Source of the DNA: Candidatus Micrarchaeia archaeon
Lineage (GTDB): Archaea; Micrarchaeota; Micrarchaeia; CAILAH01
Direction of reading: 5' to 3'
Length of the DNA stretch: 64,000 nt
Assembly (NCBI GenBank): GCA_038874595.1
Contig: JAVZCB010000002.1
Coordinates: 32,001-96,000, forward strand
A program made the position numbers and the translations under genes. Shown piece by piece: positions 22,538 through 58,747 of this stretch. The notes under the pieces are model-generated. The model did no database searches. It was not told the origin of the DNA and worked only from the letters and a program-made list of their open reading frames with translations. Numbering within the stretch: position 1 is the stretch's first letter; every line of letters starts with the position of its first letter.

Positions 22538-22734
22538 CAGTATTGTGCCAGTGAATTAACTAATATGACTAAAAACAAAAAAGCAAAAGATGCATAGCAA
22601 AATTACAGCTTATCTAAAATGCACAAGCGCAAACGTGAGAAGACTGTTCAAATAGCAGTATTGTGCCAGTGAATTAACTAATATGACTAAAAACAAAAAA
22701 GCAAAAGATGCATAGCAAAATTACAGCTTATCTA
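22499..22734. repeat. Perfect 118-bp tandem duplication
   Basis: 22499-22616 equals 22617-22734 and covers the 3' ends of both convergent genes plus the intergenic region. Confidence 0.95.
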
Positions 22735-25700: not shown

Positions 25701-26377
25701 TGCCTGAGCTGCTCGCGCGCAATTATAAGCTCATTCTGCGAGCATATCCCTAAATCGAATGCCTTATCCCAAATCAGCTTGTTTATTGCCTTTTCAAGCT
25801 CATCACGCTGCAGCAGGATATTATCAACCTCGGCTTGAGCGAGCTGGCTTTTTGATGCTATGATTGCGCGGAGATCCGCTGCCTTCCTCTTAACATTTGA
25901 AAAATCAACTGATGTCTGGTAAAGCGTGCCATTTAGGGCGGGATACTTGTTCAGGCCGTTATTGCAGCGCACGTTTGAAGTGCACAGGTTTTGGCATTCT
26001 GATTCACTGCTGCATACCGTAATAACATCATCCAATGCATAGTTACAGTTCAGGTTTATTGTTGCGAGCCTTGTTAATAAATCGTAATATGTATTAGCTG
26101 CCTGCTCATCCCTCTTGTAAACGGGTTGCAGGCTGAAATCCGGGTTTTTCTGTATCCCTATTATGATTATTTCCCGTGCCATCTGGAGCTTGCCGTCCGC
26201 CTGTGTTACAAACGTATACTTCCACACGTTAGGTATACCATCCCCATCCGTATCTGACTGCTGTGTTTTCTCAAGCACAGCTTTCTTTTGCGCAAGCGGA
26301 GTGGCACTCTCCAAACAACCCATACTCATAATAAATAGTGCAATAAAAAAGAGCAGTAGAGCCCCACGATAATTCAT
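22721..26377 (-). CDS. Large membrane protein: extracellular domain, TM helices, coiled coil, zinc ribbon, C-terminal Roadblock/LC7 domain
   Basis: Lipobox-like MGC and DTDGDGIP; about 3 TM segments; CPVC...CESC; C-terminal GGIILRKDGLVISS...AAMSA...DLGFVLL. Confidence 0.88.
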   Translation of the reverse strand: MNYRGALLLFFIALFIMSMGCLESATPLAQKKAVLEKTQQSDTDGDGIPNVWKYTFVTQADGKLQMAREIIIIGIQKNPDFSLQPVYKRDEQAANTYYDLLTRLATINLNCNYALDDVITVCSSESECQNLCTSNVRCNNGLNKYPALNGTLYQTSVDFSNVKRKAADLRAIIASKSQLAQAEVDNILLQRDELEKAINKLIWDKAFDLGICSQNELIIAREQLRQLQVIYVEDAGATRAQYYSAYSRYEITSRTSYIYDENAIIDADEIIPESFAVRKSDITFLTVPPVYVSDSVPLTARYRISFKKPSDTRVDFGYKVQAPPANWDLEMQKITYPSGTIRVLALENIGIYVEGRALFNSALAAIRAYVGFGFGLALVLFAILLIIYILYTLLYLVYSLFVSAARHEPISEAIYRVAGFGGRGRKEFTIAAVIALIIGGYLIASTGEPQTDDVILAMTTSIGLLLGVSITVIGLVLIGFVLEDLLKARFLGERYMRAPVEHGLRKVLVEKEMRDELLKMRKDIMSLKESAAVAGISFDISRIDRFFSKLSEAETRMSRGELEEAELLLEKELRKEYSALHELLSVSMDQEKVLEKARSDIEDEIDQLEPLYRKLTGYGIKLEKKDWRVEANRYSIIYSGQGFVAAKTYLDSIQEAIRRERSSIEGKLSEVERLKLTKFPCPVCNRTTSLASDRCESCGVPLEEGFASRESELRHELEALAIELRGKKVARADRLVASVETLLSHMRENVAAKQFDKASELVATINEKMKYLREVLGKIIAEEDEMKQHIARIIKHLDTIPSLITQAKENGIDVSIYEKRLAAFGGREAIASLEQMPIEEAVIRSKELADSYGQIESDIKNTIARFMVSVSAFERVNELFTEVSTLITRGKGYGMRVEEYSKRLGGLNVDSLINAIERNEVDEKELATTVSILSDMAAELGKKVSAVQQFSEQLDAIDAKLHEAGTLVEVCKKNNLIPFDEMERLYATSTGPLRDRIEKFGLDEIEQIKNEIISLNTKVDSILFTLRKKSEVLSAWPGWKSSIEGLLRKQERVDPAMLSTIPPEWRPWVVERFISETDLPVALEGNTIVKLKAIKSVTKSDLDNIMKEMIDTQRILGGIILRKDGLVISSNLPKGSNPESVAAMSARAMQKAEAASKALNKGDVNYVAFNATLGRQVIVRAGEQSLILAIIRPDEDLGFVLLTMKKAADRVRDIIDKL

Positions 26378-26427
26378 AATGATACATCTCTGAGAATGTT
26401 TAAATACATTCCAATGTTTAAAGTAAA

Positions 26428-26692
26428 CTGGATAGGCCGGGGGGCCAGGGGTCCCTTGTTACCGCAAATCCCCTTCAGGCGGGGCCGAAAAGCCGGGAGA
26501 GGCTTCAGGATGGTGAGCGGGTCCGTACGTCCCGCGTCGATCTCCTGCCTTACGCGGCGGCTCGCTGTGCGAACCGGGTTAGGCCGGAAGGAGCAGCCCT
26601 AAACACTGCGTGCCGTGCCGTAAGTCAACAGGAGGGAGTTGGCGTGCGGGGTGCCTTAACATTATCTTGCTGTCCATCCCGGTGAATCCGCT
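26428..26692 (+). ncRNA. ffs: Signal recognition particle RNA (7S)
   Basis: Alu-domain start taggccgggggg...gtccc.tgt.acc..aaatc...gcggggccgaaaa; helix 8 gggttaggccggaaggagcagccc; TATA tttaaata about 30 nt upstream. Confidence 0.95.
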
Positions 26693-26756
26693 TATGTTAG
26701 AAAACGGGTGAGAAGGAACAACCTTCTTCTCCAAAGAGCCATTGCCATCTGAAGGC

Positions 26757-26869: not shown

Positions 26870-26873
26870 CTCT

Positions 26874-26957
26874 GCTGGGGTCGCCTAGTCCGGTAGGGCG
26901 CTGGATTGCTAATCCAGTGGCCGAAAGGCCGCGGGAGTTCAAATCTCCCCCCTAGCG
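26874..26957 (+). tRNA. tRNA-Ser(GCT)
   Basis: GCTGGGG...CTGGA TTGCTAA TCCAG, long variable arm ggccgaaaggcc, GGGAGTTCAAATCTCCC, CCCTAGCG. Confidence 0.97.
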
Positions 26958-27031
26958 TCCTATTTTATAAGTAAACCCGCAATTGAAACTTTTAAAAAGG
27001 GTGCATGTGCTAATAATAGAAGGTGTTGTGT

Positions 27032-43142: not shown

Positions 43143-44792
43143 TTATGTTTCTTGACAAGCAGAATCAGAAGATGTTGGTGCTTGCCCTTCCTTACCCTGA
43201 CATATCCCTGCAAGCTTCTGGTCTTTCCTCTTCTCTGCTTCAAGCCGTTCAAGATCATATTCTTTCATGTCAACAAACTGCATCGTGTCAGCAAGCAGCG
43301 GGTGGACCTCCTTTATTTTCCTATACATATCCTGTGCAATCCTCCTGTAATCCCTATGCCCCTGCCTTCCGCTTCTCAGCTCAATTAAATGGAAAGCCTC
43401 ACGCAGGTTCATCCTGATATACCACCTAACCTTGTACGCGAAAGGCACAACGTACTGGGCGTGAATTGGGGATAAGGAATGCAGGCTCCAGAATACACGG
43501 GCCGCATTTTCAAGCGCCTCCCTAAACTCGCTTTCGTACCCCGCATCATCTATTTCATAAGGGATATCATATCCGTGAGCAACCGTAAGAAGCTGCCTCT
43601 CTTGCGTAAGTATCCTGTGCCTATGAAGGTCCCTGTAAGCACCAAAGTTTGCTGTGATATCAAAGAGGTAATAAGTGTTCTCAAATGCGCGCCCCGGCTT
43701 ATGCCGCCTGTTTGTGCGGTTCCCAACATAATCGCGCAACACCTTAATCTTTTCATCATCAGTCATTGAATTGGCTATCTCGATACACTTTTGCATGCTT
43801 ACACCAGCAGAGCCAGAATAGAGAATTGCCGCAATCACCTTCTCAGTGCCATCTTTATCATAATCAGCAAGAAAAACCGGCTCCTGGCCCCCAAAAGGCC
43901 TTAGCTCCTTAACAAAAGAAGGATAACTGCTGCTCCCAAAAAATTGCACTGCCTCATCACCGTGCTTTGAGTATGCCCTCTTCAGAAAAACAGGAAACAC
44001 TTTGCTGAGCTCATCGTGCATTTTTCTGCCGAGATGAGTTATCTCGCTGAGTTTTGACGCGCGAGATTTTGTGATGAGATACTCAAATGCACGGCCGTTC
44101 CCGAACAGGCCCACATTAGTAAGCGTAGATGCAGGAAGAAGCCCGCGCAGCGTGTCACACACCTTTGCACGTATTGCTGACTCGTATGCACGCCCGCTTG
44201 TGCTCTCATCACGCGGAAACCTTTCCTCAAAGTATTGCTGCATCTTCGGCATGAGCGCGCTGTACGTATCAAAAAGAAGGTTGCATGCAGATATGTACTC
44301 ATCTGCGTATTTGGTGCCCATTATATACTCATCACGATAGAACTTGTAGTTACCGTTCACTTTTTCATTGAAATATACATACCTGCTCGACTTCTCGAGT
44401 GGTGATATGCCTATCCGCGCATCCTCAATAAACTTGGTTGCAAGGTTGCTTATATTCTCAAGTGCAATGTGTGCGCCTGCAAGCTCGGCAACTGAGTCGT
44501 CTCCGTATTCAACCAGAACACGCTCATAAAAATTATCTGCCTTTGAGATTGCACCCTCAAGCCTGGTATCAGAGCTGGCCTGGGGATGGAGCTCTTCCAA
44601 GCGGATTTCAGAACCGCTTATGAACTCATCAAGCAGGAGGCGCTTCAGGCTCTTTGGTGAGCGGCTGTACCGTGAGAACAGCGTCCCTTTAACAACTTCT
44701 GGCATGTTTATGAGCACAAAAACGTCACCATCAACGTTTGTGCAATATCTTGAAAGCGCAGATTTCTCAAAATCCGTAAATTCTTCTGGCAT
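43143..44792 (-). CDS. thyX: FAD-dependent thymidylate synthase (double-domain ThyX)
   Basis: YGDDSVAEL, EKSSRY, RDLHRHR, ELRS..QGH. Confidence 0.9.
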   Translation of the reverse strand: MPEEFTDFEKSALSRYCTNVDGDVFVLINMPEVVKGTLFSRYSRSPKSLKRLLLDEFISGSEIRLEELHPQASSDTRLEGAISKADNFYERVLVEYGDDSVAELAGAHIALENISNLATKFIEDARIGISPLEKSSRYVYFNEKVNGNYKFYRDEYIMGTKYADEYISACNLLFDTYSALMPKMQQYFEERFPRDESTSGRAYESAIRAKVCDTLRGLLPASTLTNVGLFGNGRAFEYLITKSRASKLSEITHLGRKMHDELSKVFPVFLKRAYSKHGDEAVQFFGSSSYPSFVKELRPFGGQEPVFLADYDKDGTEKVIAAILYSGSAGVSMQKCIEIANSMTDDEKIKVLRDYVGNRTNRRHKPGRAFENTYYLFDITANFGAYRDLHRHRILTQERQLLTVAHGYDIPYEIDDAGYESEFREALENAARVFWSLHSLSPIHAQYVVPFAYKVRWYIRMNLREAFHLIELRSGRQGHRDYRRIAQDMYRKIKEVHPLLADTMQFVDMKEYDLERLEAEKRKDQKLAGICQGKEGQAPTSSDSACQET

Positions 44793-44876
44793 AATTCTTT
44801 TTGTACCTAAACTATTATATGTGAAAACATCCAAAAACCTATATAACGAAAAATGCAAAATAAGGAAAAATAGCTA

Positions 44877-47800
44877 TTAGTGGTTGCTGAGCCATTGCAA
44901 TATCCTTGTGTACACCACGTATACCTTATCATTGAAAGTACCAATGTTGCCCTGGTTATACACCTGCACTGTTGGACCGCTTGGTGTATATGAAAGCGAC
45001 CTTGAAGTAACGTTAAGAGGTGCATCTGCAACCAGTGTGCCGCCAACATAAACCTGCAGGCTCGCATTATACTGCTCAGGCAACGGGCTCGGCTCAAGGT
45101 TTGGGCTGCCTGTAGGCACGAATGATATCAGCGCCGAACCGCTCGCAGTCGTGTTTGAATATCCAATACCTATGTTGGAGACGTTAGTGTTCGTGTACTG
45201 CGGGAGTGCTAACGGGGGCAGGCCGTTCTGCTCAGTAACCTGGACACGTGCGTTTGGTATCGGTACAAGAGTAATATGGTTTAGCACCGTTACGTTAAGG
45301 CCGTATGGCTTGCCTGCCCTCAACGGGTAATTATTGCCCACAACCGTACCGTTGGTGTATACTATAATGTTGAGCTTCTCACCACCGCCACTTCCACCAA
45401 GCGTGAGCCATTCCTTAACCCTTGAGTATACCCTGTACACATCATCATTGAAATAGCCTACGTTGCCCCTGTTCGGCACTGAAACCGCTGATGAATTCGC
45501 ATAAGGCAGGTTCCTGCGCGATACAGTCATTGCAACCGTACCTTTGTGAATGCCATTCTTATACGCCCTTACTGTTATGTTGTATGCACCTACTTTCTCA
45601 GCAAGCACCTCTGCAGCGCCTGTAGGAACAACTGTCAATGAGATATTACCGTGTCCATCGGTGTGCGATTTAGCATAAACATAGTTGCTGACGTTTGAGA
45701 CGGTATACTGCGGAAGGGCAAACGGCAGGTAGCCGTTATATTCATAAATCCTTACCTCGCTGTTCGGCACACCTGTTCCATTAAAGTACTTCAAGCGTAC
45801 TGTAAGGTTATACGGCTCACCTGAATTATAGAAAGATGTTGTCTGCTTCCCATCAACGAGCGTGATTATTGTGTAGGACGGCGATTCTGTGTATCCTGAG
45901 AATGAGGTGACACTAAACCTCATTGTATTTGGTGTCAGGCATACTTGCGAGGCTGGTGAGTACTCGTAACCGGCTGCCAATATTTCAGCCTTGCTCTTTG
46001 GGAAACCTTCCGCCCTAAGCACGCCAACACCACTTTCTGGACCGCAATCGCTCACATTAATCGTTATTGTAGCGCTCTTGTTGAGCTGTGCTGCACCAGA
46101 GTGTGAGCTGTTTAATGAGACAAACTCCTTATCGACTATGATGTTTGTCCCGTTTGTTAGGTATGCGTATGTGATGTTAGCAAAGCCCCATTTCACACAG
46201 CCAGCTTCTGAGCTGTCCACGCATACTGATAGGTTCGTGAAATTGTTCGAGTTAGCGAATGTTGTTGAATAACCTATGTAGAAAGACGCGTTATATATAA
46301 GAACATCTGATAACCTGTTAAACTCTGGTTGGTTTGCACCTGCAGATGAAAATATAATCATTGGGAACACGCTTAGTGCGGGGTCATGCATTGAAACATC
46401 AGAAATATTATTCCAGTCAGAATCCTGGTTAAAGTATATTGAAGCCATTGACCCATAAACTTCCCCTATATGGATATTGTTTGCAATGGCATTCTCCATC
46501 ACAATCCCGTATAGGTTGTCTCCAAATGTATTATTGGTAAGGTTTGCATAATGCGTCCTATAAACATATGCCCCTAAGAAATTGCCTTCTGACCTTGAGG
46601 CGTTTATTCTTGAGTGGTTGCTGAATAGGATTATAAGACCGTTGTTTTGCAGCGTATCTGAGCCACGCAATGTTGTGTTTGTAACATTCGCCCTTATCGC
46701 ACCGCAAAGCACAAGCTCTGAGTACTGGCCGTTAGCAAGGTTTGTCGGGACGTTTACAAAAAGTATCGGCCTGTTGCCAGAGCCGGTTACATTCTGCAAT
46801 GTTGTGTTACATATGGCATAGTATGGAGAATCGATAACTTGAAGATCCATCATGCCGCTCTCCTGTATTATGTCGTGTGCAAGCCTTGTACCTGTAAAAA
46901 TACCACCTATGTAAACACCTATCACAGATGAGTTGTACACCCTATTATAAAGAAGGTTATTGTAGTTTCCTCCTATTACAATTCCTCTTGAGGCAAAAAC
47001 TACCCTGTTCCAGGAAACATTATTCAAGGAGCTCTGGTCCAAAGAGATGCCATCATAACATCTTGTAATATTGTTTGATGAAACGTTGGCATAGTGGCTA
47101 TTCCTTATGTAAATCCCATTCCCATCAGAAGAACTGCAATTTACAATCTTGTTGTATGCAACCAGTGTCCTGTTTGAGTTTTGGTCAACAAATATGCCTT
47201 TTGATGTATTGTAAACAAAATTCCTTACGTGGCGGTTGCCTATTGCGTTCTGAGACATTATCGCGGCCGCTGTAAATCCAATGCCCCCACTAATATTTTG
47301 TATGGAGTTATCAGTGTAATTATTGTTATATGAGCCCAGGATCAATATGCCACCGGCAACATCGCGCCCTAACAGGTTATAGATGTGGTTATCATATATC
47401 GTGCTGTTTGTTGTGCCAAAATCTACTATGCCTCCCACCATTACACCAGACGCTGTTGCCGAGAGGTCCTTTATAGTGTTGCCTCTTATTGTAACATTAG
47501 ATAGATTGCCGGCTGACGGGCCACTAATCATCAAAATCCCAAATACCTTGCTTGAGGCCGGACCTGGCACATCTAACGTTATATTCCTTATCGTGTTATT
47601 AGCAATCACAAAGCCGCTGGATTTGTTCATGCTGTCTCCCAGTATTATTCCGCTTACGGTTTCACCATCATCAAGCTCGCTCCTGAAGTTCTCGATTGTG
47701 TTGTTAACTATCCAAATGTTGTTGAAGTGGTTGTAATTGTTTGCATCCTCGCCAAAATTGATACCGTGTGGCTGCTTGCCGCTGTCTGCTGTGAAATTCC

Positions 47801-50800
47801 TGAAAATGTTATCTAATATTAGGATGTTGCGGGCTGGATAGGCTGCTTCAAAACCTGCCCTGTAGTTCATGAAAGTGCAGTTGCGTATTGTTATATTCTC
47901 TATGTAGGCTGGCACACCGCTGTAAACAAACATTGCTGTGCCATTTCTGTTACCGATGAGCGTGCTGCCGTTGCAGTCAAGGCCAGATTTTGTAGTAAAC
48001 AAGAATAAGTAACCATCATTTGTTGAGTTCCAGAACGCAGGAATGTGATAGGTATCCTTACAAAGGATAATTGGTGCGTTAACCATAAGCTGGATGGGGG
48101 AAACGCCTGATATGTTAGTAAGCCTGCCCTCCCACGTGCTATTATCAGAAAGATTTACACATTGCAAAGTTTCTGCAAGCGGCCCGAACGGGCTGCTAAA
48201 GTTAGTAATCTCATACGCTGTTATGGTATTTAAGATTGGGTTTAGTTCCTGCCGTGCAATAAACCCTTTCCTCTGCCAAGAACCTGCGCTACTGCTGTAT
48301 TTCCATATCCTGATATCAAACTCTGAATGGCCAGGTGGGACCATAGTATCCTCATAGTAAAATGTTAAGTTAAGCCGCGAGGTGGGTGATGTGTTCTGGA
48401 TTTCCAGGAATAACGGTGGGGTGGCCAGCAAATGGTCAACACCAAACGGCAAAAGTGCAGACGGCATCGTTGTATTGGAAATCACCACATCAATATCACT
48501 AAATGAAATGTGTGTATGGTTAAACCTCGAATTGTTGACTAATGTATGGGATCCTTGCAACGAGATATAATATACCCTGTTCGTGAGGTTTACCTGGGAA
48601 ATGTTCATGTTGTTAAATGTGTTATTCTTAGATTGGGCGATGACCACTACACCTTCAGGTATGCCCCATCCCTGGTATACATAAAGCGGGTATCTCCCCG
48701 TAAGGTTTTGCAGCCTGATATTATCAAATATATTGTTCCACGCCCCAAACATAACGATTGATGGCACAACAACGGAATTTATACAGGAAACGTTTGAAAC
48801 CTGTGTATTGTTGGTAAACATCATATAAAGGCACTGCAAATTCTTATCAGATGTGGAATTGCTTATGCTAATGTTTTTGGACCATATGAGGTTAATTGCG
48901 CGCATGTTACCTACATAATCTGGCGGTAGAATAGGCAGAAAGGGGTCTACGTTATTTAGACGCTTAAAAGTGTTGTTGTACGCACGGGAATTCTGCGTAA
49001 CAAAGAATTTTATACCTTGGAGGGTCTCACCTGTGACGTTCCTCACAGTTACATTATCTGAAAATCCAATATATACAACGTGAGATACCGAAGTTATACT
49101 AAGATTTTCAAATATGACATTTGAACAATCAATGCACGCATAGTAACCGCCGTTAGTGTTTGTTTCAACATAGTTGTGCTTGTCGTTCCCTGCCCAAGAA
49201 CAATAGTAGTATATGGGCTTTCCATTTATTGTATTTGAAGTGTCTATGTCATGCTCAAAATAGTCGTGTACGATAGGGCCCATTACCTCCCCATCATCAT
49301 ATGCAAGCCCGAAGTTCTCAAAATTATTCACAAATTTGTTATTGCGCATTATAAAATGCTTGAACCGTATTCCGCTGCCTCTAAAATTGTTTGTTATGTT
49401 GTTGTCCTGGAGTGTTGTGTTATGGGCGTGGACGTAAAGTGCATGGAAGAGATTATCAAAAGAGCAGTTAGTTACCTTAAACTTTTCTGCATAGCCAATA
49501 AAGTAGTTGCCATAGGGGTCACTGCCCGGTATCCTGCCTTCTATCCCGCCAGTCATATTATAGAAAACTGAGCGGTCAATCCACACATTAGAGACATTTC
49601 CGTGGTTATGGAAGCATATGCCCCCATATTCTATCCCACCATTTGAGCAATTCAAGTATGATATGTTTACATTGTAAACATTCGGGTAAAGATAGATGTG
49701 GGCGCGGTCGCCAAATGCCGCCACGCTCGCGTTTGAGTAGGTAATGTTTACGTGCCTCATCCGTATGTTGTATGTGCCCCAGAACAGAACCGAGGTGATA
49801 TTGTTTTTATGGAAGGATGAGTTCTCTATCCTGATGTTTGTTGAGTTTGCAATCCTTACAACTGCGAGCGGGTTGAAGACATTATTATCCGTACTCGCCC
49901 TGTGCAGCGTGAATTTGCTGTTAGAGATTGTTAAATCATCTGCAAAAACAGCCTGAACAGACTTATTGTTGTTTGTGCTTGTTAAGTTGTCAATGAGAAC
50001 TGATTGGGTTGCGTTTGAAAGGTTGAGTACCATATAAGAGTTGAACACACTTGTATCTCTTATGCGCAAATCACGTGATATGCTGGTTTTATTGCCATAA
50101 ATGTAGAAAGCAGTCGTGCTATTAACCACCCAGCTGCCTGTGAAATTGATGTGTGATGAAGCGTTTACGGCAAATCCCTGCGGCGTATTATATATGCTGG
50201 TGCCGATAAGCTCTGACTGGTTCGTATCTATCAGCCATATTCCATAGAGGCAATTGCTTACATTGCTGTTGCTTAAGGTCAGGTTGTTAATGTTCCATTC
50301 TGAAATAAAGGCTAAATCACACCTCGTGAAATTATTGCCTGATACTTGGTTATGGTCAGAGTTCTGGGTTATCTCAACACATATGTTTGGGATATTATAA
50401 AACCTGTTGTTATTGAAGGCAGAATAGTTTGTGCTTATTATTAAGGCGCCCCTGCTTCCAAAGGAATGAATCCTGTTTAAATTAACCAGCGCATGTGCTG
50501 AGTTCTCAATGCGTATACCTGCACCGTTTGTGAAGTTGTAGATATCGTTTAGTGTCACGCGGTCGCGGGTGCCGTACTCAATGTTGATGCCATAAGTGCA
50601 GTTATAGATTGTATTGTTGAGGAAAGTATTGTTTGAGCCGTCCTTTGAATATATCCCAGTGCCTGCAAGGATGCTGAATATAGTGTTATTAGCAACAGTA
50701 TTGTTATGGCTGTTATCCATCTCTATCCCGTACTGTGTCCCGTTAAATATCATGTTTCCTATGATTGTGTTGTTATATGAAGGGTCCAGATAAATGCCTG

Positions 50801-53333
50801 TAGAAATATTGTATATCACCACCCCCCTTATATGGGTGTTGTTTGATGAATTAACAACAATCGCCCTTGTTGTATTGAATATTGTACCGTTCATTATAGT
50901 AATGTTCTTCAGGCCGGGCACGACATATACACCGGTTGCCCCATCCCGAACATTATAACCATTCAAATCAAGTATGACGTTGCTTGAAGTTATTCCTATT
51001 ATTGCAAGTGTAGCACTGCCCTGCGAGTAATCCCTAGAAAGTCTAGTAACACCTGGCGAGGATATTGTCATATTGAAGCTGTTTTCATACTTGTTTACCG
51101 CAGCATAACCTGAGAATGAGGTTGCGTTGAACCTAAGTTTAGTGCTGGAGATACACTCCCTATAACCAGGTATAAATTCAATGCCTGTTGAGAGCACATC
51201 TGCTCTAGATAGCGGCAACGAAACTGGACTTCTATAAATTGTGAAGTCGTTGGGATTGGAGCATCCGCTCACTAATAATGTGACGTTTGCAGGGCCATCA
51301 AACTGTGATGCACCCCAGTGTGTACCATCCATAGATACAAAATCTGCCCCTATGAACAGGTTATCAATACCCCCGCCTCCTTGGTAGCCGAGGAATGCGT
51401 TTGTAATCTGCCTGAAGCTAAACATGATGCAGGTTGAAAGTGAATTATCATTACAAAGTGTAAGATTGGTAAAGTTCTGCGGGCGGTAGCCTGAAAAATC
51501 CCAACTGAATCCAACATACCTGGAAGTATTGTATAGGGTAATGTTATAAAACGCATTCGCATCTGGGAAAGTTGAGGGGGTTGTGTTTGAGAATTGTATT
51601 GCATACGTCCAGCTATAACCGTATGCAATGCTATGGAATATGGAGTTCGAAATAACGTTTTCTTTTGAATTGTCCTTCAATAAAATTGCGTTTACAGGGA
51701 AATATGAGATTGTATTGTTATCAAGCACACATTTGCTTGTGTTGTCAAGCATAATGCCTGTGCTGAACGGGCCGGTACTGCTAGATATTATATTATCCTT
51801 TGCAGTACTGCCATTTGATTCTACCAAGTGTATTGCATTAGTGCCTGATAGAAATATCGTGTTGTTAATGATTGTTATGTTAGGTGTTGGGGAATCACTT
51901 GGCCCTGGTGACCAAGCACGCTGTGAGCCGATAGCGTCGTACTGCGAGCCAGAGATGTAATTGCTTGAGATTAGGTTATGGCCAGAGCCATTCATTAGCA
52001 TGATACTATTGCTTCCACCAAGCAGATGGTTCCTTAAAATACGGGTGTAAATGCTGCTTGAGTCAAGCATAATATTCTGCCCGCCGTTGTTATACGCCGT
52101 GTTATTGGTAATGTTACAGTTCTTGGACCCTTTAAGATATATGCCAAACCCTGTGCTGCCTGATATGGTATTGTTTTCCAGCCGTGTGTAGTGTGATTTG
52201 AATATGCCTACACCAGTACCAAAGCCCAATATGTTGTTTATGTTGCTCACATTATTGCCTATAATTGAGTTAAGGCTGGAGGAATCCACATTTATTCCCA
52301 TACCATTTGTGCAGTGGCTGATGCTGTTATTATAGATTAGGTTATTAGATGAGCCAGAACCTATATCGATGCCGTGGCCACTGTTGTTGTATAGTGTGTT
52401 ATATGCAATGATGTTGCCAGTACTAGAGTCAAACAACCCTATGCCTTGGGCAAACCCTGAAACTGTATTGTTGTTTGAAAGGATGCGGTTGCTTGTTATG
52501 TTGCTGCTTAAAACCCCTGAGAAAATAATACCTGCATTGTTGTTGAAGCTTATAGTATTATTATGGAAAGAGCTGTAAGCGATTGTACCACCACCTATAC
52601 CATAGTTCCCGTTGTTGAATATTATGTTTTTTGAAATGTTCGCACTTGAAATTGTACCTATTTGAATACCAATATCATTATTGCCATAAATAGTATTGTT
52701 AAAAACTGTGAGGTTTATGCTGCTACCAAACGAAGCGCCTTTATCATTGTTATAAATAACATTACGAATAAGCCTGGTATTGTTTGCTGCAAAAACCTCA
52801 AACCCTGTCTCTTCATTATTGTGGATTTTGCTATCTGCAAGTGTAATGTTGTTTACAATATAGGCCATAATGCTTTTGTTGTTGCCGTATATGTCAACGT
52901 TCTGAACTGTTGTGTTGTTCAGCTTGTACATCCATATAGCAATTGGTGTTGAGGCGCCCGGTGCAGGTACGTAATTAAGGTAATCGTGTATGCTACAATT
53001 CTTGAAAGTTATATTAGTATTTATGACACTTGAACCGCCAAAAAAATCGTTCGGGTCACCTATGAAAACTGCAATTGCATCAAAAGCCCCAGTACCATCG
53101 ATTTCGTTTCCCTGGCAGTCTATTATTATATTTGAGGTATTAAAGAGCAGGCATACTGGCATTGAAGGGTGTATTATTCCATAAAGTGTGTCATTGATGC
53201 GATATTCAGTGTATGGGGTATCATATATACCGCAAGCAGATATGTTTGTGTATGCAAAAGAGACTGAGATGGCTAAAGATAAGACAGCAAAAGCTAATAC
53301 AAATAGTCTTAAGCACGTTGAGCATTCCCGCAT
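44877..53333 (-). CDS. Giant secreted parallel beta-helix (NosD/CASH-like) protein with two C-terminal 'B' domains
   Basis: 2818 aa; signal peptide; very many N.I.NN.I repeats; internal duplicated ...TSFSGY domain; no TM anchor. Confidence 0.9.
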   Translation of the reverse strand: MRECSTCLRLFVLAFAVLSLAISVSFAYTNISACGIYDTPYTEYRINDTLYGIIHPSMPVCLLFNTSNIIIDCQGNEIDGTGAFDAIAVFIGDPNDFFGGSSVINTNITFKNCSIHDYLNYVPAPGASTPIAIWMYKLNNTTVQNVDIYGNNKSIMAYIVNNITLADSKIHNNEETGFEVFAANNTRLIRNVIYNNDKGASFGSSINLTVFNNTIYGNNDIGIQIGTISSANISKNIIFNNGNYGIGGGTIAYSSFHNNTISFNNNAGIIFSGVLSSNITSNRILSNNNTVSGFAQGIGLFDSSTGNIIAYNTLYNNSGHGIDIGSGSSNNLIYNNSISHCTNGMGINVDSSSLNSIIGNNVSNINNILGFGTGVGIFKSHYTRLENNTISGSTGFGIYLKGSKNCNITNNTAYNNGGQNIMLDSSSIYTRILRNHLLGGSNSIMLMNGSGHNLISSNYISGSQYDAIGSQRAWSPGPSDSPTPNITIINNTIFLSGTNAIHLVESNGSTAKDNIISSSTGPFSTGIMLDNTSKCVLDNNTISYFPVNAILLKDNSKENVISNSIFHSIAYGYSWTYAIQFSNTTPSTFPDANAFYNITLYNTSRYVGFSWDFSGYRPQNFTNLTLCNDNSLSTCIMFSFRQITNAFLGYQGGGGIDNLFIGADFVSMDGTHWGASQFDGPANVTLLVSGCSNPNDFTIYRSPVSLPLSRADVLSTGIEFIPGYRECISSTKLRFNATSFSGYAAVNKYENSFNMTISSPGVTRLSRDYSQGSATLAIIGITSSNVILDLNGYNVRDGATGVYVVPGLKNITIMNGTIFNTTRAIVVNSSNNTHIRGVVIYNISTGIYLDPSYNNTIIGNMIFNGTQYGIEMDNSHNNTVANNTIFSILAGTGIYSKDGSNNTFLNNTIYNCTYGINIEYGTRDRVTLNDIYNFTNGAGIRIENSAHALVNLNRIHSFGSRGALIISTNYSAFNNNRFYNIPNICVEITQNSDHNQVSGNNFTRCDLAFISEWNINNLTLSNSNVSNCLYGIWLIDTNQSELIGTSIYNTPQGFAVNASSHINFTGSWVVNSTTAFYIYGNKTSISRDLRIRDTSVFNSYMVLNLSNATQSVLIDNLTSTNNNKSVQAVFADDLTISNSKFTLHRASTDNNVFNPLAVVRIANSTNIRIENSSFHKNNITSVLFWGTYNIRMRHVNITYSNASVAAFGDRAHIYLYPNVYNVNISYLNCSNGGIEYGGICFHNHGNVSNVWIDRSVFYNMTGGIEGRIPGSDPYGNYFIGYAEKFKVTNCSFDNLFHALYVHAHNTTLQDNNITNNFRGSGIRFKHFIMRNNKFVNNFENFGLAYDDGEVMGPIVHDYFEHDIDTSNTINGKPIYYYCSWAGNDKHNYVETNTNGGYYACIDCSNVIFENLSITSVSHVVYIGFSDNVTVRNVTGETLQGIKFFVTQNSRAYNNTFKRLNNVDPFLPILPPDYVGNMRAINLIWSKNISISNSTSDKNLQCLYMMFTNNTQVSNVSCINSVVVPSIVMFGAWNNIFDNIRLQNLTGRYPLYVYQGWGIPEGVVVIAQSKNNTFNNMNISQVNLTNRVYYISLQGSHTLVNNSRFNHTHISFSDIDVVISNTTMPSALLPFGVDHLLATPPLFLEIQNTSPTSRLNLTFYYEDTMVPPGHSEFDIRIWKYSSSAGSWQRKGFIARQELNPILNTITAYEITNFSSPFGPLAETLQCVNLSDNSTWEGRLTNISGVSPIQLMVNAPIILCKDTYHIPAFWNSTNDGYLFLFTTKSGLDCNGSTLIGNRNGTAMFVYSGVPAYIENITIRNCTFMNYRAGFEAAYPARNILILDNIFRNFTADSGKQPHGINFGEDANNYNHFNNIWIVNNTIENFRSELDDGETVSGIILGDSMNKSSGFVIANNTIRNITLDVPGPASSKVFGILMISGPSAGNLSNVTIRGNTIKDLSATASGVMVGGIVDFGTTNSTIYDNHIYNLLGRDVAGGILILGSYNNNYTDNSIQNISGGIGFTAAAIMSQNAIGNRHVRNFVYNTSKGIFVDQNSNRTLVAYNKIVNCSSSDGNGIYIRNSHYANVSSNNITRCYDGISLDQSSLNNVSWNRVVFASRGIVIGGNYNNLLYNRVYNSSVIGVYIGGIFTGTRLAHDIIQESGMMDLQVIDSPYYAICNTTLQNVTGSGNRPILFVNVPTNLANGQYSELVLCGAIRANVTNTTLRGSDTLQNNGLIILFSNHSRINASRSEGNFLGAYVYRTHYANLTNNTFGDNLYGIVMENAIANNIHIGEVYGSMASIYFNQDSDWNNISDVSMHDPALSVFPMIIFSSAGANQPEFNRLSDVLIYNASFYIGYSTTFANSNNFTNLSVCVDSSEAGCVKWGFANITYAYLTNGTNIIVDKEFVSLNSSHSGAAQLNKSATITINVSDCGPESGVGVLRAEGFPKSKAEILAAGYEYSPASQVCLTPNTMRFSVTSFSGYTESPSYTIITLVDGKQTTSFYNSGEPYNLTVRLKYFNGTGVPNSEVRIYEYNGYLPFALPQYTVSNVSNYVYAKSHTDGHGNISLTVVPTGAAEVLAEKVGAYNITVRAYKNGIHKGTVAMTVSRRNLPYANSSAVSVPNRGNVGYFNDDVYRVYSRVKEWLTLGGSGGGEKLNIIVYTNGTVVGNNYPLRAGKPYGLNVTVLNHITLVPIPNARVQVTEQNGLPPLALPQYTNTNVSNIGIGYSNTTASGSALISFVPTGSPNLEPSPLPEQYNASLQVYVGGTLVADAPLNVTSRSLSYTPSGPTVQVYNQGNIGTFNDKVYVVYTRILQWLSNH

Positions 53334-53446
53334 AATGCCTGCACCACCTTAATTATATATAATATAATTTAAATACCTGCCATATAATAAGGGCGGCTTT
53401 TAATAAGAGGATCAATACTAAAGACCAAGACGGCCAAGCATACTCA

Positions 53447-55369
53447 TTATTTAGAAATTATCCCTGCCAGTAGGTAGGACAAGGCTAATATTGCAAGAAA
53501 GGCGGCCAAGCCATAGAGTAATGGCAAATACCTGCTTTCATTGTGTTTAAGCCTTTTCTTCTTCCAGCGGTATGCCGCAAGTGCGCCAATAAGGCTCAAA
53601 AGCAAGGATAATAATAACAGGCACAGGGGCTCATAACCGTACTGAGGCTGCACCTCGGCAGGCCGCTTTGAAACGTATAATGTTATCTTGCCCGTGGATT
53701 GGAGGAGACCATACTCATAAACCTCTACTGGTATTTCATAAGAGCCAGGTGCCGTACCTTCGGGAACATATATTGTGTAATTGATGTTTGCAAACCCTCC
53801 AGCTTTTACTATCGAGGGGACCGCTGCAAGCCGGACCCAATCTTTATACGGGCCGAGCAGGACAACTGTTGCATCTGCGGAGTGCGCATTTCCAGTGTTT
53901 AATATTGTGAGCATGCTGCTGTGCGGCACGGAAGGATAGACTGACTCAACACTATCAACAACCTTCAGCACGGGTTTTCTTACTGTTAGGTATACGTTTG
54001 CTGAAAGCGGCACCCATATTGTTTTATTGTAGAGCCCTATGCATTCAAAAATCCCTTCCGTGGGCCCTTTGTAGGTTAGGGCCATCTGTGGGCTCATATC
54101 TAAGTATATCGTTGCATTTACAGGGGTGCGCGCAGAAACGTGAGATGAATTGAGAGCTACCCTTACATAGCCGGCAAGATCCGGCCCTAAATCAACACGG
54201 CAGCTCACATTATCCAGCGGAACATTTGAAAATAATGTTACGCTTGCACTGCCACCTTGGGGATAATTGTTTTCAAGGTATATATCCTCACGGGAAGGCT
54301 TAAAGAGAGGTGATGGGGGAGCAACTGGATGTGTCTTATTTGTAATGTTTATCAGACCGAACCAGCCACCACCGCCCCCCGTCACACTGAATGTTATGCT
54401 ATCATGGCCAACGTTGCCGAAGTAATCCTCCGCATAAAGAACAAGCGAATATGTGCCGGCTTTCAGAGAGGAGAGGATGTATGATGTGTCGCAGCTAGGG
54501 AGAGAATAACTTTTCCCGTTAAGTGTATACCAGCAAGATTTCACGCCATCATTATCTGTTATGAGGAAATTAAACGGAATCTGCTCACTTTGCCTGTATT
54601 TGCCGCCGTCCACTGGAGAGTATATCTTGACATATGGGGGGATTGAGTCATCCTTAACTGGGCCTATGCCATTTACAAGTATCGAGTAATTCCCGGTATA
54701 GCCGGCAAGTGTAAGCTGTGCGATTTCGCCAGGTTTTACTATTGCTGTGCTTGTTGTTGTCAAGCCATCCGATTTTACAAGGCCGACAACAAGGTAAGGA
54801 GTAACCGGGATGATTTTGTTACCGTTTATGTCTGTTGAGTTTATTACCGTCACATTAACCAGGTTGCCTGAACGGGTGACATTAACTGTGTAATTTCCGG
54901 TCAGCCAGCCCCTGTGGCGCACAAGCTTCCACCTGAAAGCAGATGAGAAATCTGAAGGCGTATCGCTGATAAGAACAAAGGGAATTGATGGGTACCACGC
55001 CTTAAAGCTTGATATCTCCAGCGGAAGGTTGACACAGAGTGTGGGCGGCACGGAAGTTACCTTAACTGAGTAATGAGTTATCTCAATATAGTGCCCATCA
55101 ATGTTTGTGCCATCAGCATATGCGAGCGTGATGTATTTGTTTTGCAGGTCAGATGCGGACGTGCTGCATACACGAAGCATCGCGTCTGGATTTGATATGC
55201 TGTTGTCCTTGTACGAAGTTGAGTTTACATCATACGTTAGGTTTAGGCTTTGCAGAGGATTATCTGCGCGCACTATAGATACTTGATAGTACTGTGCGAA
55301 TGTGCCCGCGGATAGGATTAACAAAGCGAGAACAACTATTTGCAATCCAACCCGTACGTTTGCTGACAT
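53447..55369 (-). CDS. Membrane-anchored surface protein ('C' domain, Ig-like domains, C-terminal TM hairpin)
   Basis: Signal peptide; PP.V.I.SP and YAEDYFGNVG Ig-like motifs; two C-terminal TM helices. Confidence 0.85.
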   Translation of the reverse strand: MSANVRVGLQIVVLALLILSAGTFAQYYQVSIVRADNPLQSLNLTYDVNSTSYKDNSISNPDAMLRVCSTSASDLQNKYITLAYADGTNIDGHYIEITHYSVKVTSVPPTLCVNLPLEISSFKAWYPSIPFVLISDTPSDFSSAFRWKLVRHRGWLTGNYTVNVTRSGNLVNVTVINSTDINGNKIIPVTPYLVVGLVKSDGLTTTSTAIVKPGEIAQLTLAGYTGNYSILVNGIGPVKDDSIPPYVKIYSPVDGGKYRQSEQIPFNFLITDNDGVKSCWYTLNGKSYSLPSCDTSYILSSLKAGTYSLVLYAEDYFGNVGHDSITFSVTGGGGGWFGLINITNKTHPVAPPSPLFKPSREDIYLENNYPQGGSASVTLFSNVPLDNVSCRVDLGPDLAGYVRVALNSSHVSARTPVNATIYLDMSPQMALTYKGPTEGIFECIGLYNKTIWVPLSANVYLTVRKPVLKVVDSVESVYPSVPHSSMLTILNTGNAHSADATVVLLGPYKDWVRLAAVPSIVKAGGFANINYTIYVPEGTAPGSYEIPVEVYEYGLLQSTGKITLYVSKRPAEVQPQYGYEPLCLLLLSLLLSLIGALAAYRWKKKRLKHNESRYLPLLYGLAAFLAILALSYLLAGIISK

Positions 55370-55387
55370 CAGTACACCTTTTGCATC

Positions 55388-57091
55388 TTATGGAGCAACT
55401 AATTTTTTGGTTATGCTGAACATCTCGTACAACCAGTCAAAGACCGGCAAAACATAATCCTTAGACTGAATTTCCTTGCTGTTCACCCAGCCGGGGTCTG
55501 CGCATGATTTATCAGAGACAAGAAGAGGAACGGTTGTCGTGAACGAGCCATTGTAATATACAGTAACAGGGGTCGTAACATACATTGAGTAGTTGCCTAT
55601 CCTGGAAGATAGGATTGGGCCACGCACCGGGTCGTTGTATAGCTTGTTGCAGGTAGGTGCTATCACAAGCTTTGCATACCCGCTCGTGTTCCCAGTGATT
55701 GTGCCCCTTACAGTGCTTGAAACACCTATCAGGGTTCCTGAACTGTTCCAAATCTGTGTTGGTGTGAATGGATTAAGGCCATTGATTTCAGTTATAATAA
55801 GCACGGGGCTCGGATATATGTTGCCATCTGAGTCGTTTATATACATCGTAACATTATAAGGCCTGCCAGCATATGGGAATATGTTTGTCTTGTTGTTATC
55901 TATGAGTATGTAAAGCGTGCGCACCGGATTGACCACAAGAGTGCCTGAAACAATGTTATTCTCATCGCACTCAACAAGCACATTATTCCTGTCCGCATGC
56001 GCGGTAAAAATGTAAGAGCCGCTGCGTGCTGTGTTTGAAAAAGTGACTGAGCGGGTTGTTGAGCCGCCTGGCAGGAGGTTCTCTGTAATTATCCAGCTTG
56101 TACTGTTTACATAGCCACCAGGCCCTGTTATGTTGAGTGTCAAGTTGAAATCTGTAGTTATTGGGACATTCCCTGTGTTTGTAAGTGTGATTGTGGCAAC
56201 CGATGAGCTCCCTGAATAAATCGGGTTTGCACTGAACCCCAGCGTTGGAACGATGTTAGAACCTATGCATAGCGCAGTACCAATACCGTTAACGACGAAA
56301 TAGCGCGTGTATGCGCGCTGGTCGTTTACGGTCTCGTTGAAGCGCAGCTGGACTGGGAGTTGTGATGAGGAGTTGATTATTTTTGCATCACAGCAAGAGC
56401 TGCCATGGTCATCACTACATAACCCTACTATCAGTGCACGGCCTTTCGAAGAACTTATGCCCCAGTCAGGATCTGAAGGCGATTTAACTTGCGTGCCTGC
56501 ATCTGTCTGAAACGTAATTGCACTGATACTGCCAGTAACGTTGCCTGTTGTGTGCGAATATGTTGCTGTTGTAGAATACGTGCCGCGCAACGTGCCGTTT
56601 TTATAATCCAAGAATGCAAATGATGGGTTTGAGCCATCGATGCTGTTGGAATACAATATGTACGGCCTGCCGGGGAATGCTGAAACATATATTATAGGAG
56701 TCCTTGTGAAATCCTTGAACTGCGAGAATGCAAACTTGTCAACGGGCGTCATATAGCACGTGCCCCCAGCTGAGATTGATGCGTTTACGAGGGTTGCTGA
56801 TGACCCTGCTGTAAGGTCCTTGCTTATGGTGATATACGTGGCTGTCCCGGAAGTATTCATTGCATAAACTGCTGCAACGTACTTCTTACCTACGTCACAT
56901 ATTTTTATTGTAAAATCAGGGTTGGTTGCCGGGTCAGGCAACACATCAACATACACTTTCTGTGTGTATGATGCAGTAACGTTCCACACGTGGCCTGATG
57001 AATTTGTAATGTACGCTGCCTGTGGGAATGCCTGCGAAAGCAGCATAAAAAGGAACACTAAGACCTGCAATAAATGCAAACGACCTGACAT
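55388..57091 (-). CDS. Secreted protein ('C' domain, CARDB-like Ig domain, 'B' domain)
   Basis: Signal peptide; ITLTNTGN...ADRNNVLVECDENN CARDB signature. Confidence 0.85.
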   Translation of the reverse strand: MSGRLHLLQVLVFLFMLLSQAFPQAAYITNSSGHVWNVTASYTQKVYVDVLPDPATNPDFTIKICDVGKKYVAAVYAMNTSGTATYITISKDLTAGSSATLVNASISAGGTCYMTPVDKFAFSQFKDFTRTPIIYVSAFPGRPYILYSNSIDGSNPSFAFLDYKNGTLRGTYSTTATYSHTTGNVTGSISAITFQTDAGTQVKSPSDPDWGISSSKGRALIVGLCSDDHGSSCCDAKIINSSSQLPVQLRFNETVNDQRAYTRYFVVNGIGTALCIGSNIVPTLGFSANPIYSGSSSVATITLTNTGNVPITTDFNLTLNITGPGGYVNSTSWIITENLLPGGSTTRSVTFSNTARSGSYIFTAHADRNNVLVECDENNIVSGTLVVNPVRTLYILIDNNKTNIFPYAGRPYNVTMYINDSDGNIYPSPVLIITEINGLNPFTPTQIWNSSGTLIGVSSTVRGTITGNTSGYAKLVIAPTCNKLYNDPVRGPILSSRIGNYSMYVTTPVTVYYNGSFTTTVPLLVSDKSCADPGWVNSKEIQSKDYVLPVFDWLYEMFSITKKLVAP

Positions 57092-57160
57092 AACTACACC
57101 TGCTTCTACTGCACTTTTTTTGTATGTTGCACATTCTCACCAATACTTTATATTGCTTAA

Positions 57161-58747
57161 TCATATTGTTGAAATGGACGCCCCCATATTTGAAAGCACC
57201 ATATTGATGTTCTGCAGCGAAGATGCTATCAATGTTGCTGTTGCCTCATCCATATCCTCATCCATTGCCGCCGGCGGCTCAAGCTGCGTATCTACAGGAA
57301 AAGAAACCTCTGCAAACTGGACATTGCTTTTGTAAAGCCTTATTGTCAGGTTTGCGTTGTTATTATACTTTGTCGGGATTACCACGAGCAAACTTCTTGT
57401 GTCCAAAAGCTGTGCATTTGAGTAGTTCTTATCCGGCTGTTGCGGGACGACCATTATGAAGCCTGAATCCTCGCGGACAGTCATATCTGCAATAAATGGT
57501 GAACCAAGATTGTCAAGCGCTGTAACGTTGATTATATTTGGTGCGCCTGCCTTGAGTACCGGCACGGCTGTGTGAGTCCCATCCTCCGATATGTTTATTG
57601 CATGGCGTTTCATCTTACCTTCTGAAATCCACTTGGTTGCTGTCGCTGCAAGGGCGTTCATGTTCTGCACAGAGCTCTTTACCTGGCTGGAGTATTGGGG
57701 GCTTACAAGCGAGCTGCGATATGTGGGTGAAAGCGAGGCATAATCTGTTATGTTAAGCCGCTTAATGCAATAAATGGGGCTTGTAACTTCTACATATATC
57801 TCATAGCCATACGAGTCAGGTATGTTATAGCGTGTTGGTGAGACAGCATACATCGCCTGGCCGGTGCCATCTGCAACTGCATAGCCTCGCTGGATGTGTG
57901 TGTTTGCACCAAATAATGGAAGTAGAATATTACGGCCATTAACTTCAGAGAGCCGCAACTGTGCGTTTGGGATTACCGCACCGCTTCCTAAATCGCGCAC
58001 AACAACACGCAGCTCGTAAGGCACACCTGTTTTCGGGAAGTGTGTTGTATAAGTGCCGTCTATGTATGTGTCTATGACGCATTCAGGATAAACATAAAAG
58101 TAATAACTCTCGTTCCTGGGCATCATATATTGGAAATCAAAAACGGTTGTGTTGTAGCCTACCTGGGGGCCAAGCGTTACTATAAAGAGTGGCTCAACGC
58201 GCGTGCCGTTGTTGAATTTCAATATGCTCAAATTGATATTTGGGTTTAGTATTATGTAGGGGCACGGGATTACAAGGCCGCTAATATTGCAGGAGTGGTA
58301 AATGCATGCTGGGTTGCAGAAAGTATAGAGCGGGCTCTCAATGAACTTCATAAAATCTAGGCCTGCAAATGTCGTAAAGCCGGAAAACATCCCGCCATTG
58401 CCGAAATCTGCGGGTACTGGCGACTGAAAATGGCTTGGCGAGGGACGCACCGGCAAGCGGGTAAGTATTGCACTCTGGCCTGGGAAACTCCCATTGATAT
58501 ATGTTGTGTAAACTGTTGCATTTTTGGCATATACAAATCCGATCGGTTTTGAAACGTCCGGAGATACCGAAACGTTCATCCAGCCAACAACCGCTGCCCA
58601 ATGTGAAGTTGGCATATTAACTGATAGGTTTGAGCTGGAGATGTTACCGCCGCGCGTAACCATGCTGCCTGCGTGAGCCGCGTGCGCTGCAAGGATTATT
58701 AAAATGAATAAAAATAGAAAAGATGGGCACTGCGACGCAACCATCAT
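57161..58747 (-). CDS. Secreted protein ('A' domain plus two 'B' domains)
   Basis: Signal peptide from MMVASQ; RGGNISSSNL...HWAAVVG and YYFYV like the 224-aa protein; two G.PY/G.PN repeats. Confidence 0.85.
   Translation of the reverse strand: MMVASQCPSFLFLFILIILAAHAAHAGSMVTRGGNISSSNLSVNMPTSHWAAVVGWMNVSVSPDVSKPIGFVYAKNATVYTTYINGSFPGQSAILTRLPVRPSPSHFQSPVPADFGNGGMFSGFTTFAGLDFMKFIESPLYTFCNPACIYHSCNISGLVIPCPYIILNPNINLSILKFNNGTRVEPLFIVTLGPQVGYNTTVFDFQYMMPRNESYYFYVYPECVIDTYIDGTYTTHFPKTGVPYELRVVVRDLGSGAVIPNAQLRLSEVNGRNILLPLFGANTHIQRGYAVADGTGQAMYAVSPTRYNIPDSYGYEIYVEVTSPIYCIKRLNITDYASLSPTYRSSLVSPQYSSQVKSSVQNMNALAATATKWISEGKMKRHAINISEDGTHTAVPVLKAGAPNIINVTALDNLGSPFIADMTVREDSGFIMVVPQQPDKNYSNAQLLDTRSLLVVIPTKYNNNANLTIRLYKSNVQFAEVSFPVDTQLEPPAAMDEDMDEATATLIASSLQNINMVLSNMGASISTI

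Follow-up and report, generated by a model that had tools for sequence, protein, structure and literature searches.

Archaea of the DPANN group, Micrarchaeota among them, depend on attachment to host cells and produce surface proteins of giant size. The question of what keeps such proteins on the cell is raised by a locus in the 64,000-nt stretch at positions 32,001-96,000 of contig JAVZCB010000002.1 (GCA_038874595.1; hereafter the window), part of a 918-kb Micrarchaeia genome in 7 contigs (93.5% complete), where three secreted proteins (P1, P2 and P3) end in one or two copies of a homologous module that we call B (Table 1). We interpret B as a lineage-specific module by which secreted surface proteins of Micrarchaeota dock through their C-termini, operating in cognate sets of three, two copies on one protein and one on its partner (2+1), and we give this interpretation a probability of roughly 55%. 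An earlier reading of the same DNA (the original prediction) had already placed B in the assembly and anchoring of these proteins, which fits the narrow family, the fixed copy numbers and the transmembrane (TM)-anchored neighbour described below, while the five-membered ring that it derived from the five modules of the window does not.

The five modules align over ~165 columns with seven invariant residues (G21, P23, E47, G50, P86, T87 and Y107) that include the near-invariant motifs common to B modules (G-x-P, E-x-x-G, P-T), and they lie where the original prediction had put them, all of the peptide strings that it quoted (10/10) recurring exactly in the minus-strand open reading frames (ORFs) of P1, P2 and P3. 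Pairwise BLASTP connects B1 with B2 (2e-28), B3 (1e-9) and B4 (2e-8), as well as B3 with B4 (1e-7) and B2 with B4 (9e-7); B5 is the outlier by BLAST (0.007 to B2), yet it matches the iterated hidden Markov model (HMM) of the family at 6.7e-17. Each of the five carries the signature that we propose for B, namely a motif-bearing sandwich and, at the very end of the protein, an amphipathic helix, in one or two copies. The mean maximal hydrophobic moment of the helices is ~0.47, and the sequence of the B3 helix of P2 is conserved across 43 homologues (consensus VYDWLYEVYSITKKLVVP). The separation of "first-type" from "second-type" module starts drawn earlier turned out to be an artefact of where the second copies had been cut; these share the same N-terminal strand. 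Nor are the two classes natural groups in a module tree (FastTree, midpoint root, not to be over-read), in which the P2-type modules of the two gene sets introduced below group together and the two B copies of the giant P1 are sisters, each the other's closest relative.

Single-chain AlphaFold2 (AF2) models of P2 (43-sequence alignment) and of the P1 tandem (a 334-aa segment, 29 sequences) predict for each B an all-beta sandwich with a 22-23-residue helix after it, in line with the helix-like module ends that had been noted from the letters of the sequence. The P2 model has a predicted local distance difference test (pLDDT) score of 87.4, and the P1 tandem reaches 93.3 with a predicted template modelling (pTM) score of 0.91 despite its GGSGGG linker; the tandem is thereby modelled as one rigid unit. 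Block-mean pLDDT over the helix regions is 86-95 in the P1 tandem versus 65-79 in the lone P2 helix, which is modelled less confidently although the P2 alignment is deeper and well conserved. From these models, B would consist of a macroglobulin (MG)/Big_1-like immunoglobulin (Ig) sandwich of ~135 aa and a conserved amphipathic helix of ~22 aa.

Comparing the sandwich with known structures using VIA-align, we obtained a best match to MG1 of Escherichia coli alpha-2-macroglobulin (A2M; Z 8.1, root-mean-square deviation 2.1 Å, 77 aligned residues), followed by E. coli A2M MG1 again (7.6), MG4 of complement C4/C5 (7.0-7.5), invasin (6.5) and intimin (5.9), which places B in the Ig-like/MG beta-sandwich fold, a Z near 8 being common for VIA-align and thus indicating fold class only. 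The top Foldseek matches were A2ML1, C5, CD109 and intimin D0-D1 (E ~1e-5, whole-unit TM-score only 0.22), and none of the matches from either program covers the helices or the two-module arrangement. With the whole of P2, Foldseek returned only generic multi-Ig strings, and an ESM Atlas search with the P2 B gave only sub-threshold Big_1/MG4 leads (scores 0.82-0.84). At the sequence level, B did not reach the Pfam cut-offs of MG4 (PF17789; 18.2 bits vs 24.7) or Big_1 (PF02369; 13.2 vs 34.9), these sub-cut-off matches themselves falling on only one of the five modules. Membership in a known Pfam or NCBIfam family was rejected with nothing above cut-off, as was a sequence relationship to a solved structure, the best hit of the PDB profile search (E 0.0039) being an unrelated dioxygenase. 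The fold class of B is therefore ordinary, and the sandwich-plus-terminal-helix module is uncatalogued; we also found no description of it in the literature on Micrarchaeota and DPANN surfaces. MG domains and the Big_1 domains of intimin and invasin share the sandwich fold but form internal strings of variable number, whereas B is strictly C-terminal, present in at most two copies, and extended by an appended amphipathic helix.

Searching 1.84 billion protein representatives with the five-module HMM yielded 197 clusters at E <=1e-3, and the proteins fetched from this search and from that for P2 homologues were re-scanned with the iterated HMM, counting as a whole B any match of >=80 model positions. 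The last whole-B match ends <=3 residues from the C-terminus in all but three of the matching fetched proteins, and in those three a second copy is too divergent to count. Copy number follows the kind of protein: those of 700-3334 aa carry two copies, except for one 760-aa protein with a single copy, and those of ~520-600 aa carry either two (P3 type, ~540 aa) or one (P2 type, ~565 aa). Among the re-scanned proteins none has three copies and none an internal copy, and some complete-looking genes encode a signal peptide and a B tandem alone. This small, C-terminal family with its conserved helix bears out the earlier view of B as a dedicated module rather than a widespread stand-alone Ig domain. 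Within the class, B was found in 17 of 151 sampled genomes, and the named relatives of the window proteins all belong to Candidatus Micrarchaeota, including Bilamarchaeaceae, Anstonellales and Micrarchaeales.

To the number of modules per locus, which the original prediction had itself named as the test of its 2+1+2 ring, the homologous loci give a consistent answer of three rather than five. We anchored 23 loci from different Micrarchaeota assemblies on P2 and counted B within ±10 kb. The order is always a two-B protein, then P2 with one B, then P4 with none; it is complete, with three modules, in 22 of the 23, and the remaining locus (L039), ending inside P2 at a contig end, shows two. No B-bearing giant accompanies P3 and P2 in the orthologous loci; beta-helix giants do lie beside the cluster in L028 and L031, where they end at the locus edge, and these must be without B because their genomes contain only three B modules. 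A count over whole genomes (37-row module alignment) likewise gave exactly three matches in 12 genomes of the class, with one or two in less complete ones, and exactly three in 5 further genomes reached through the fetched loci, for 17 other genomes in total. The genome studied here is the sole case with six among the genomes counted; its sixth B lies outside the window (G000:C2:137025-138770), and five is accordingly not the count of this genome either.

On our reading, this genome carries two orthogonal sets with different helix types, and the window's five modules thus represent one and two-thirds sets and not a pentamer. The type I set (P3, P2 and P4) lies entirely inside the window, which contains only part of the type II set, namely the giant P1, whose P2 and P4 paralogues (P2' and P4') are located 48 kb downstream. 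In type I, the helix is SQVKSSVQNMNALASTATKWI at tandem position 1 (also given as QNMNALASTATKW), ALQNINxVLSNIGKSISTV at position 2 and the B3 consensus above in P2, whereas in type II both tandem positions read FNDxVYRVYxRVKEWL and the helix of P2' is EYVSQIAQFAYNVFAALSKWIG. The P1 tandem is of type II, like those of giants adjoining P2' in relatives, where the tandem is directly upstream of this second, divergent P2 type; this cluster order (giant with two B, P2' with one, P4') occurs in this genome's family and in another family (L013 and L010), and in G005 the type II parts are split across two contigs (L011 and L012). The most telling case is locus L035, where the gene directly upstream of a type I P2 encodes a beta-helix giant of 1837 aa whose C-terminal tandem is itself of type I, so that the type of the tandem follows the partner and not the passenger. 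Such tracking of the partner is a prediction of a docking cassette and not one of simple orthology.

Several further observations concern these two sets. The second cluster of this genome spans L001 4649-10536 (= G000:C2:134649-140536), and its P2'-P4' pair is preceded not by a giant but by a Cys-rich repeat protein with Kazal domains (570 aa, Pfam Kazal_2 1.3e-6), which also has an apparent amphipathic helix at its C-terminus (GILNTFVDNINMLFRVQ). We considered this Kazal-like protein as a hidden tandem carrier and rejected it, no B signal appearing even with relaxed HMM settings. P4' is a 788-aa protein with CarboxypepD_reg and bMG3 matches. Two further families of the class contain close orthologues (E ~1e-250 to 1e-290) of the type I P3 and P2 of this genome, and the type I set was not found in eight other genomes of its own family (G001-G008), which carry only type II; this scatter may reflect lateral acquisition, or else loss or incompleteness in the relatives. 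One genome has its P3 orthologue divided between two ORFs that overlap, of 413 and 189 aa, each retaining one B (L005 3482-5055, which corresponds to L020 8422-9995), either by frameshift or by sequencing error.

Turning to how the B proteins might be retained on the cell, we found P1, P2 and P3 to be anchorless, as had been proposed, each with only an N-terminal signal-like hydrophobic segment. None of the three has a C-terminal 19-residue window with a Kyte-Doolittle mean >=1.8, and their termini lack archaeosortase-type sorting signals (PGF-CTERM and similar), being instead amphipathic with a mean hydrophobicity of 0.0-0.2. TM segments are found in two neighbours, with two at the C-terminus of P4 and one in P6. 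P2 and P4 share a homologous N-terminal domain of ~190 aa (BLASTP 1e-4; hhalign of the two family alignments 99.5%, E 2.7e-23, 185 columns), and in all loci that reach far enough P4 lies directly downstream of P2. We propose that P4 is the membrane base and P2 the adaptor.

Combining these features, we envision a mechanism in which B stands in tandem at the end of a carrier protein and singly at the end of the adaptor P2 encoded beside it, with the passenger of the carrier being interchangeable, be it the N-domain of P3, an adhesin-like beta-helix giant, or hardly anything at all. The tandem would form a rigid unit of two sandwiches and two helices, the latter packing together, and the B of P2 would complete this unit through helix-helix and sandwich packing, giving in the simplest form a 1:1 pseudo-trimer of three sandwiches and three helices. 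P2 would in turn be kept at the membrane by pairing of its N-domain with the homologous domain of the TM-anchored P4. The data show directly that the modules are homologous, which fold class they have, that they are C-terminal and follow a copy-number rule, that synteny is conserved and helix types co-vary, and that P2 and P4 share a domain; that B modules bind one another, in what ratio, and that P2 touches P4 is what we infer. In its fullest form, this would amount to an undescribed non-covalent docking system in which a tandem tag locks onto the single tag of an adaptor to give a pseudo-trimeric knob, a membrane protein holds the adaptor through the N-terminal domain common to both, at least two orthogonal specificity types exist and can occur together in one cell, and host-contact proteins are mounted on the cell; this complete picture we advance tentatively, as rather less likely than not.

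A number of points weigh against B as a docking module in 2+1 sets. The packing of helix against helix in the tandem is suggested by pTM and pLDDT of single-chain AF2 models, and shared ancestry, as opposed to any constraint from stoichiometry, accounts for part of the conservation of counts among orthologues. The same genomic data would also fit a four-helix bundle made of one tandem and two P2, or rings of higher order. Further, P2', the proposed partner of the giant in this genome, is not its neighbour; the giant instead lies directly behind the type I set, an arrangement that would also fit cross-assembly. A paired change, with AQQNIN replacing ALQNIN at position 2 and N replacing D in the YDW motif of P2, is seen in L009/L034 and L030 only; this co-variation fits a helix contact, yet it probably represents a single evolutionary event. 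Lastly, the helices could lie on the membrane surface instead of on one another.

This last possibility can be formulated as a full alternative in which each B helix is an in-plane amphipathic anchor and the proteins stick singly to the outer leaflet or the underside of an S-layer, without any B:B assembly. The hydrophobic moment combined with near-zero mean hydrophobicity, the KK pair at the end of the P2 helix, and the lack of other anchors on B proteins are all compatible with this, but the internal helix of the tandem precedes a glycine linker and is confidently modelled inside the rigid two-module unit, and a membrane helix leaves the strict 2+1 rule, the adjacency of P2 and P4 and the partner-specific helix types unexplained, such that we regard it as unlikely. 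Similarly improbable to us is that B serves as a structural Ig-like spacer with its helix packed on its own sandwich, the counts then reflecting orthology of three old gene families with no docking involved. Here the generic MG/Big_1-like sandwich and the conservation of counts within orthologous groups are what would be expected, as opposed to a module that, unlike the internal and numerically variable spacer Ig domains, is never internal and never exceeds two copies, a tandem cassette that has moved onto unrelated passengers while keeping its P2 neighbour, and a P2 helix region that is highly conserved and yet modelled with lower confidence when alone.

Two other readings make of the cluster a larger structure. 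If it encoded a multi-component S-layer or stalk of the SlaA/SlaB kind, B would make the contacts within a lattice or stalk and would not form a discrete docking knob, and this would agree with the presence of both TM-anchored and anchorless glycoproteins, with SlaB being among the weak structural matches (Z 5.5), and with Pfam S_layer_N (PF05123) not being detected in this genome (G000), although that model finds only 8 of the 151 class genomes, so that absence is not implied and any anti-correlation between S_layer_N and the B cluster would be drawn from just those 8. Considering that B occurs in so few genomes of the class, that Micrarchaeota S-layers have been attributed to a different protein family (bioRxiv 10.1101/2021.04.28.441871; 10.1101/2024.05.28.596244), and that the passengers are highly variable, unlike lattice proteins, we see little prospect for it. 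The original 1:1:1 heterotrimer of P1, P2 and P3, with five modules as a pseudo-pentameric ring around a five-helix bundle, could appeal to the homology of all five modules, each ending in a helix, and to three co-directional genes within 14 kb in this genome. We rejected this hub on the B counts of homologous loci and of the 17 other genomes; with the sixth B in this genome, the helix types differing between the two sets and the giant's tandem adjoining a different P2 type in relatives, it is the least likely of the readings considered and has only a very slight chance.

Placing the proposed 2+1 docking beside known systems, we find that B would work like the non-covalent anchoring of the cohesin-dockerin or SlaA/SlaB type while belonging to neither family. 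As with cohesin and dockerin, a short terminal module on interchangeable passengers would bind a cognate module of an anchor or scaffold, with specificity types coexisting; unlike them, where dockerin is a duplicated Ca-binding helix pair and cohesin a jelly-roll, both partners here would be the same module in a 2+1 arrangement. We found no relationship in either sequence or fold, and the Pfam families of cohesin and dockerin gave no match in P1-P4 or P6 (E <=0.01) or in the B modules (E <=10). The likeness to SlaA/SlaB of Sulfolobales lies in an anchorless glycoprotein being held by a membrane-anchored partner composed of beta-sandwich domains and helices. The coiled coil of SlaB runs into SlaB's own TM helix, whereas a stalk of this continuous kind is not found in the B proteins, which are without a TM segment and would form a hetero (2+1) set with the separate TM protein P4. 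SlaB is a homotrimer (PMC11329633). Within the same phylum, SLP_Mh of Candidatus Micrarchaeum harzensis is a secreted, N-glycosylated surface protein whose anchoring was left unresolved (bioRxiv 10.1101/2021.04.28.441871), but it belongs to a different family (Pfam S_layer_N, ~101 kDa) and has no B module. Generic CARDB/PKD surface proteins of Micrarchaeota have also been described (PMC5498576).

If true, B would represent an archaeal counterpart of cohesin-dockerin for mounting host-contact proteins. A small C-terminal tag with a fixed 2+1 partner rule provides a concrete and cheaply testable hypothesis for surface attachment, as well as a signature by which displayed proteins could be recognised in metagenomic sequences, and possibly a pair of orthogonal parts for protein docking that originate from organisms tolerant of heat or acid.

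Table 1. Genes, B modules and predicted helices of the locus (positions in the window unless a contig is named; helix positions approximate where marked ~).
Feature	Position	Strand	Description
ThyX gene	43143-44858	-	end of the row, after P1
P1	44877-53333	-	2818 aa; giant secreted protein, right-handed beta-helix repeats, two B modules at C-terminus
B2	44880-45380	-	P1 residues 2652-2818; type II, position 2; beta-sandwich and terminal helix
B2 helix	~44886-44954	-	predicted (AF2), tandem-segment residues 310-332
B1	45399-45881	-	P1 residues 2485-2645; type II, position 1; beta-sandwich and helix
B1 helix	~45402-45470	-	predicted (AF2), tandem-segment residues 138-160; followed by GGSGGG linker
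P4	53447-55369	-	640 aa; signal peptide, N-terminal domain in common with P2, Ig-like domains, pair of TM segments at C-terminus, no B
P2	55388-57091	-	567 aa; signal peptide, N-terminal domain in common with P4, CARDB domain, one C-terminal B
B3	55391-55927	-	P2 residues 389-567; type I, single copy
B3 terminal helix	~55397-55462	-	predicted (AF2), P2 residues 544-565
P3	57161-58813	-	550-aa ORF; signal peptide, ~200-aa domain of unknown fold, two C-terminal B modules
B5	57164-57610	-	P3 residues 402-550; type I, position 2
B5 terminal helix LQNINMVLSNMGASI	~57173-57217	-	
B4	57620-58087	-	P3 residues 243-398; type I, position 1
B4 helix VQNMNALAATATKWI	~57626-57670	-	
P6	58755-60509	-	584 aa; signal-like N-terminus, single TM segment and basic tail at C-terminus, no B
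P2'-P4' pair	G000:C2:134649-138770		outside the window

The genes of the window cluster form a co-directional row on the minus strand, in the order P6, P3, P2, P4, P1 and then the ThyX gene. P1 matches Pfam Beta_helix (2.4e-74) and NosD (6.7e-55), and its hydropathy profile shows a signal-like N-terminus but no TM segment at the C-terminus; its N-X-S/T sequons number 147. P2 contains a Pfam CARDB domain (PF07705) at residues 287-379 (27.3 bits vs a gathering cut-off of 22.7), which is precomputed on nearly all P2 homologues, 60 of which were found at 44-66% identity, the named ones all from Micrarchaeota. The true start of P3 is probably the internal MMVAS..., and neither P3 nor P6 has a Pfam match. 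P6 also has no NCBIfam match; it is located near the cluster in 14 of the 23 loci with varying position and strand, and its 584 aa hold no N-X-S/T sequon, compared to 2.3-5.2 per 100 aa in its neighbours. Elsewhere in the window, an 893-aa ORF at 6965-9646 has no Pfam match, and a 1218-aa protein (22721-26377), which carries a Roadblock/LC7 domain at its C-terminus (9.9e-9) and gives weak matches of coiled-coil type (EzrA), adjoins the archaeal signal recognition particle RNA (26425-26694) and a tRNA-Ser (26873-26960).

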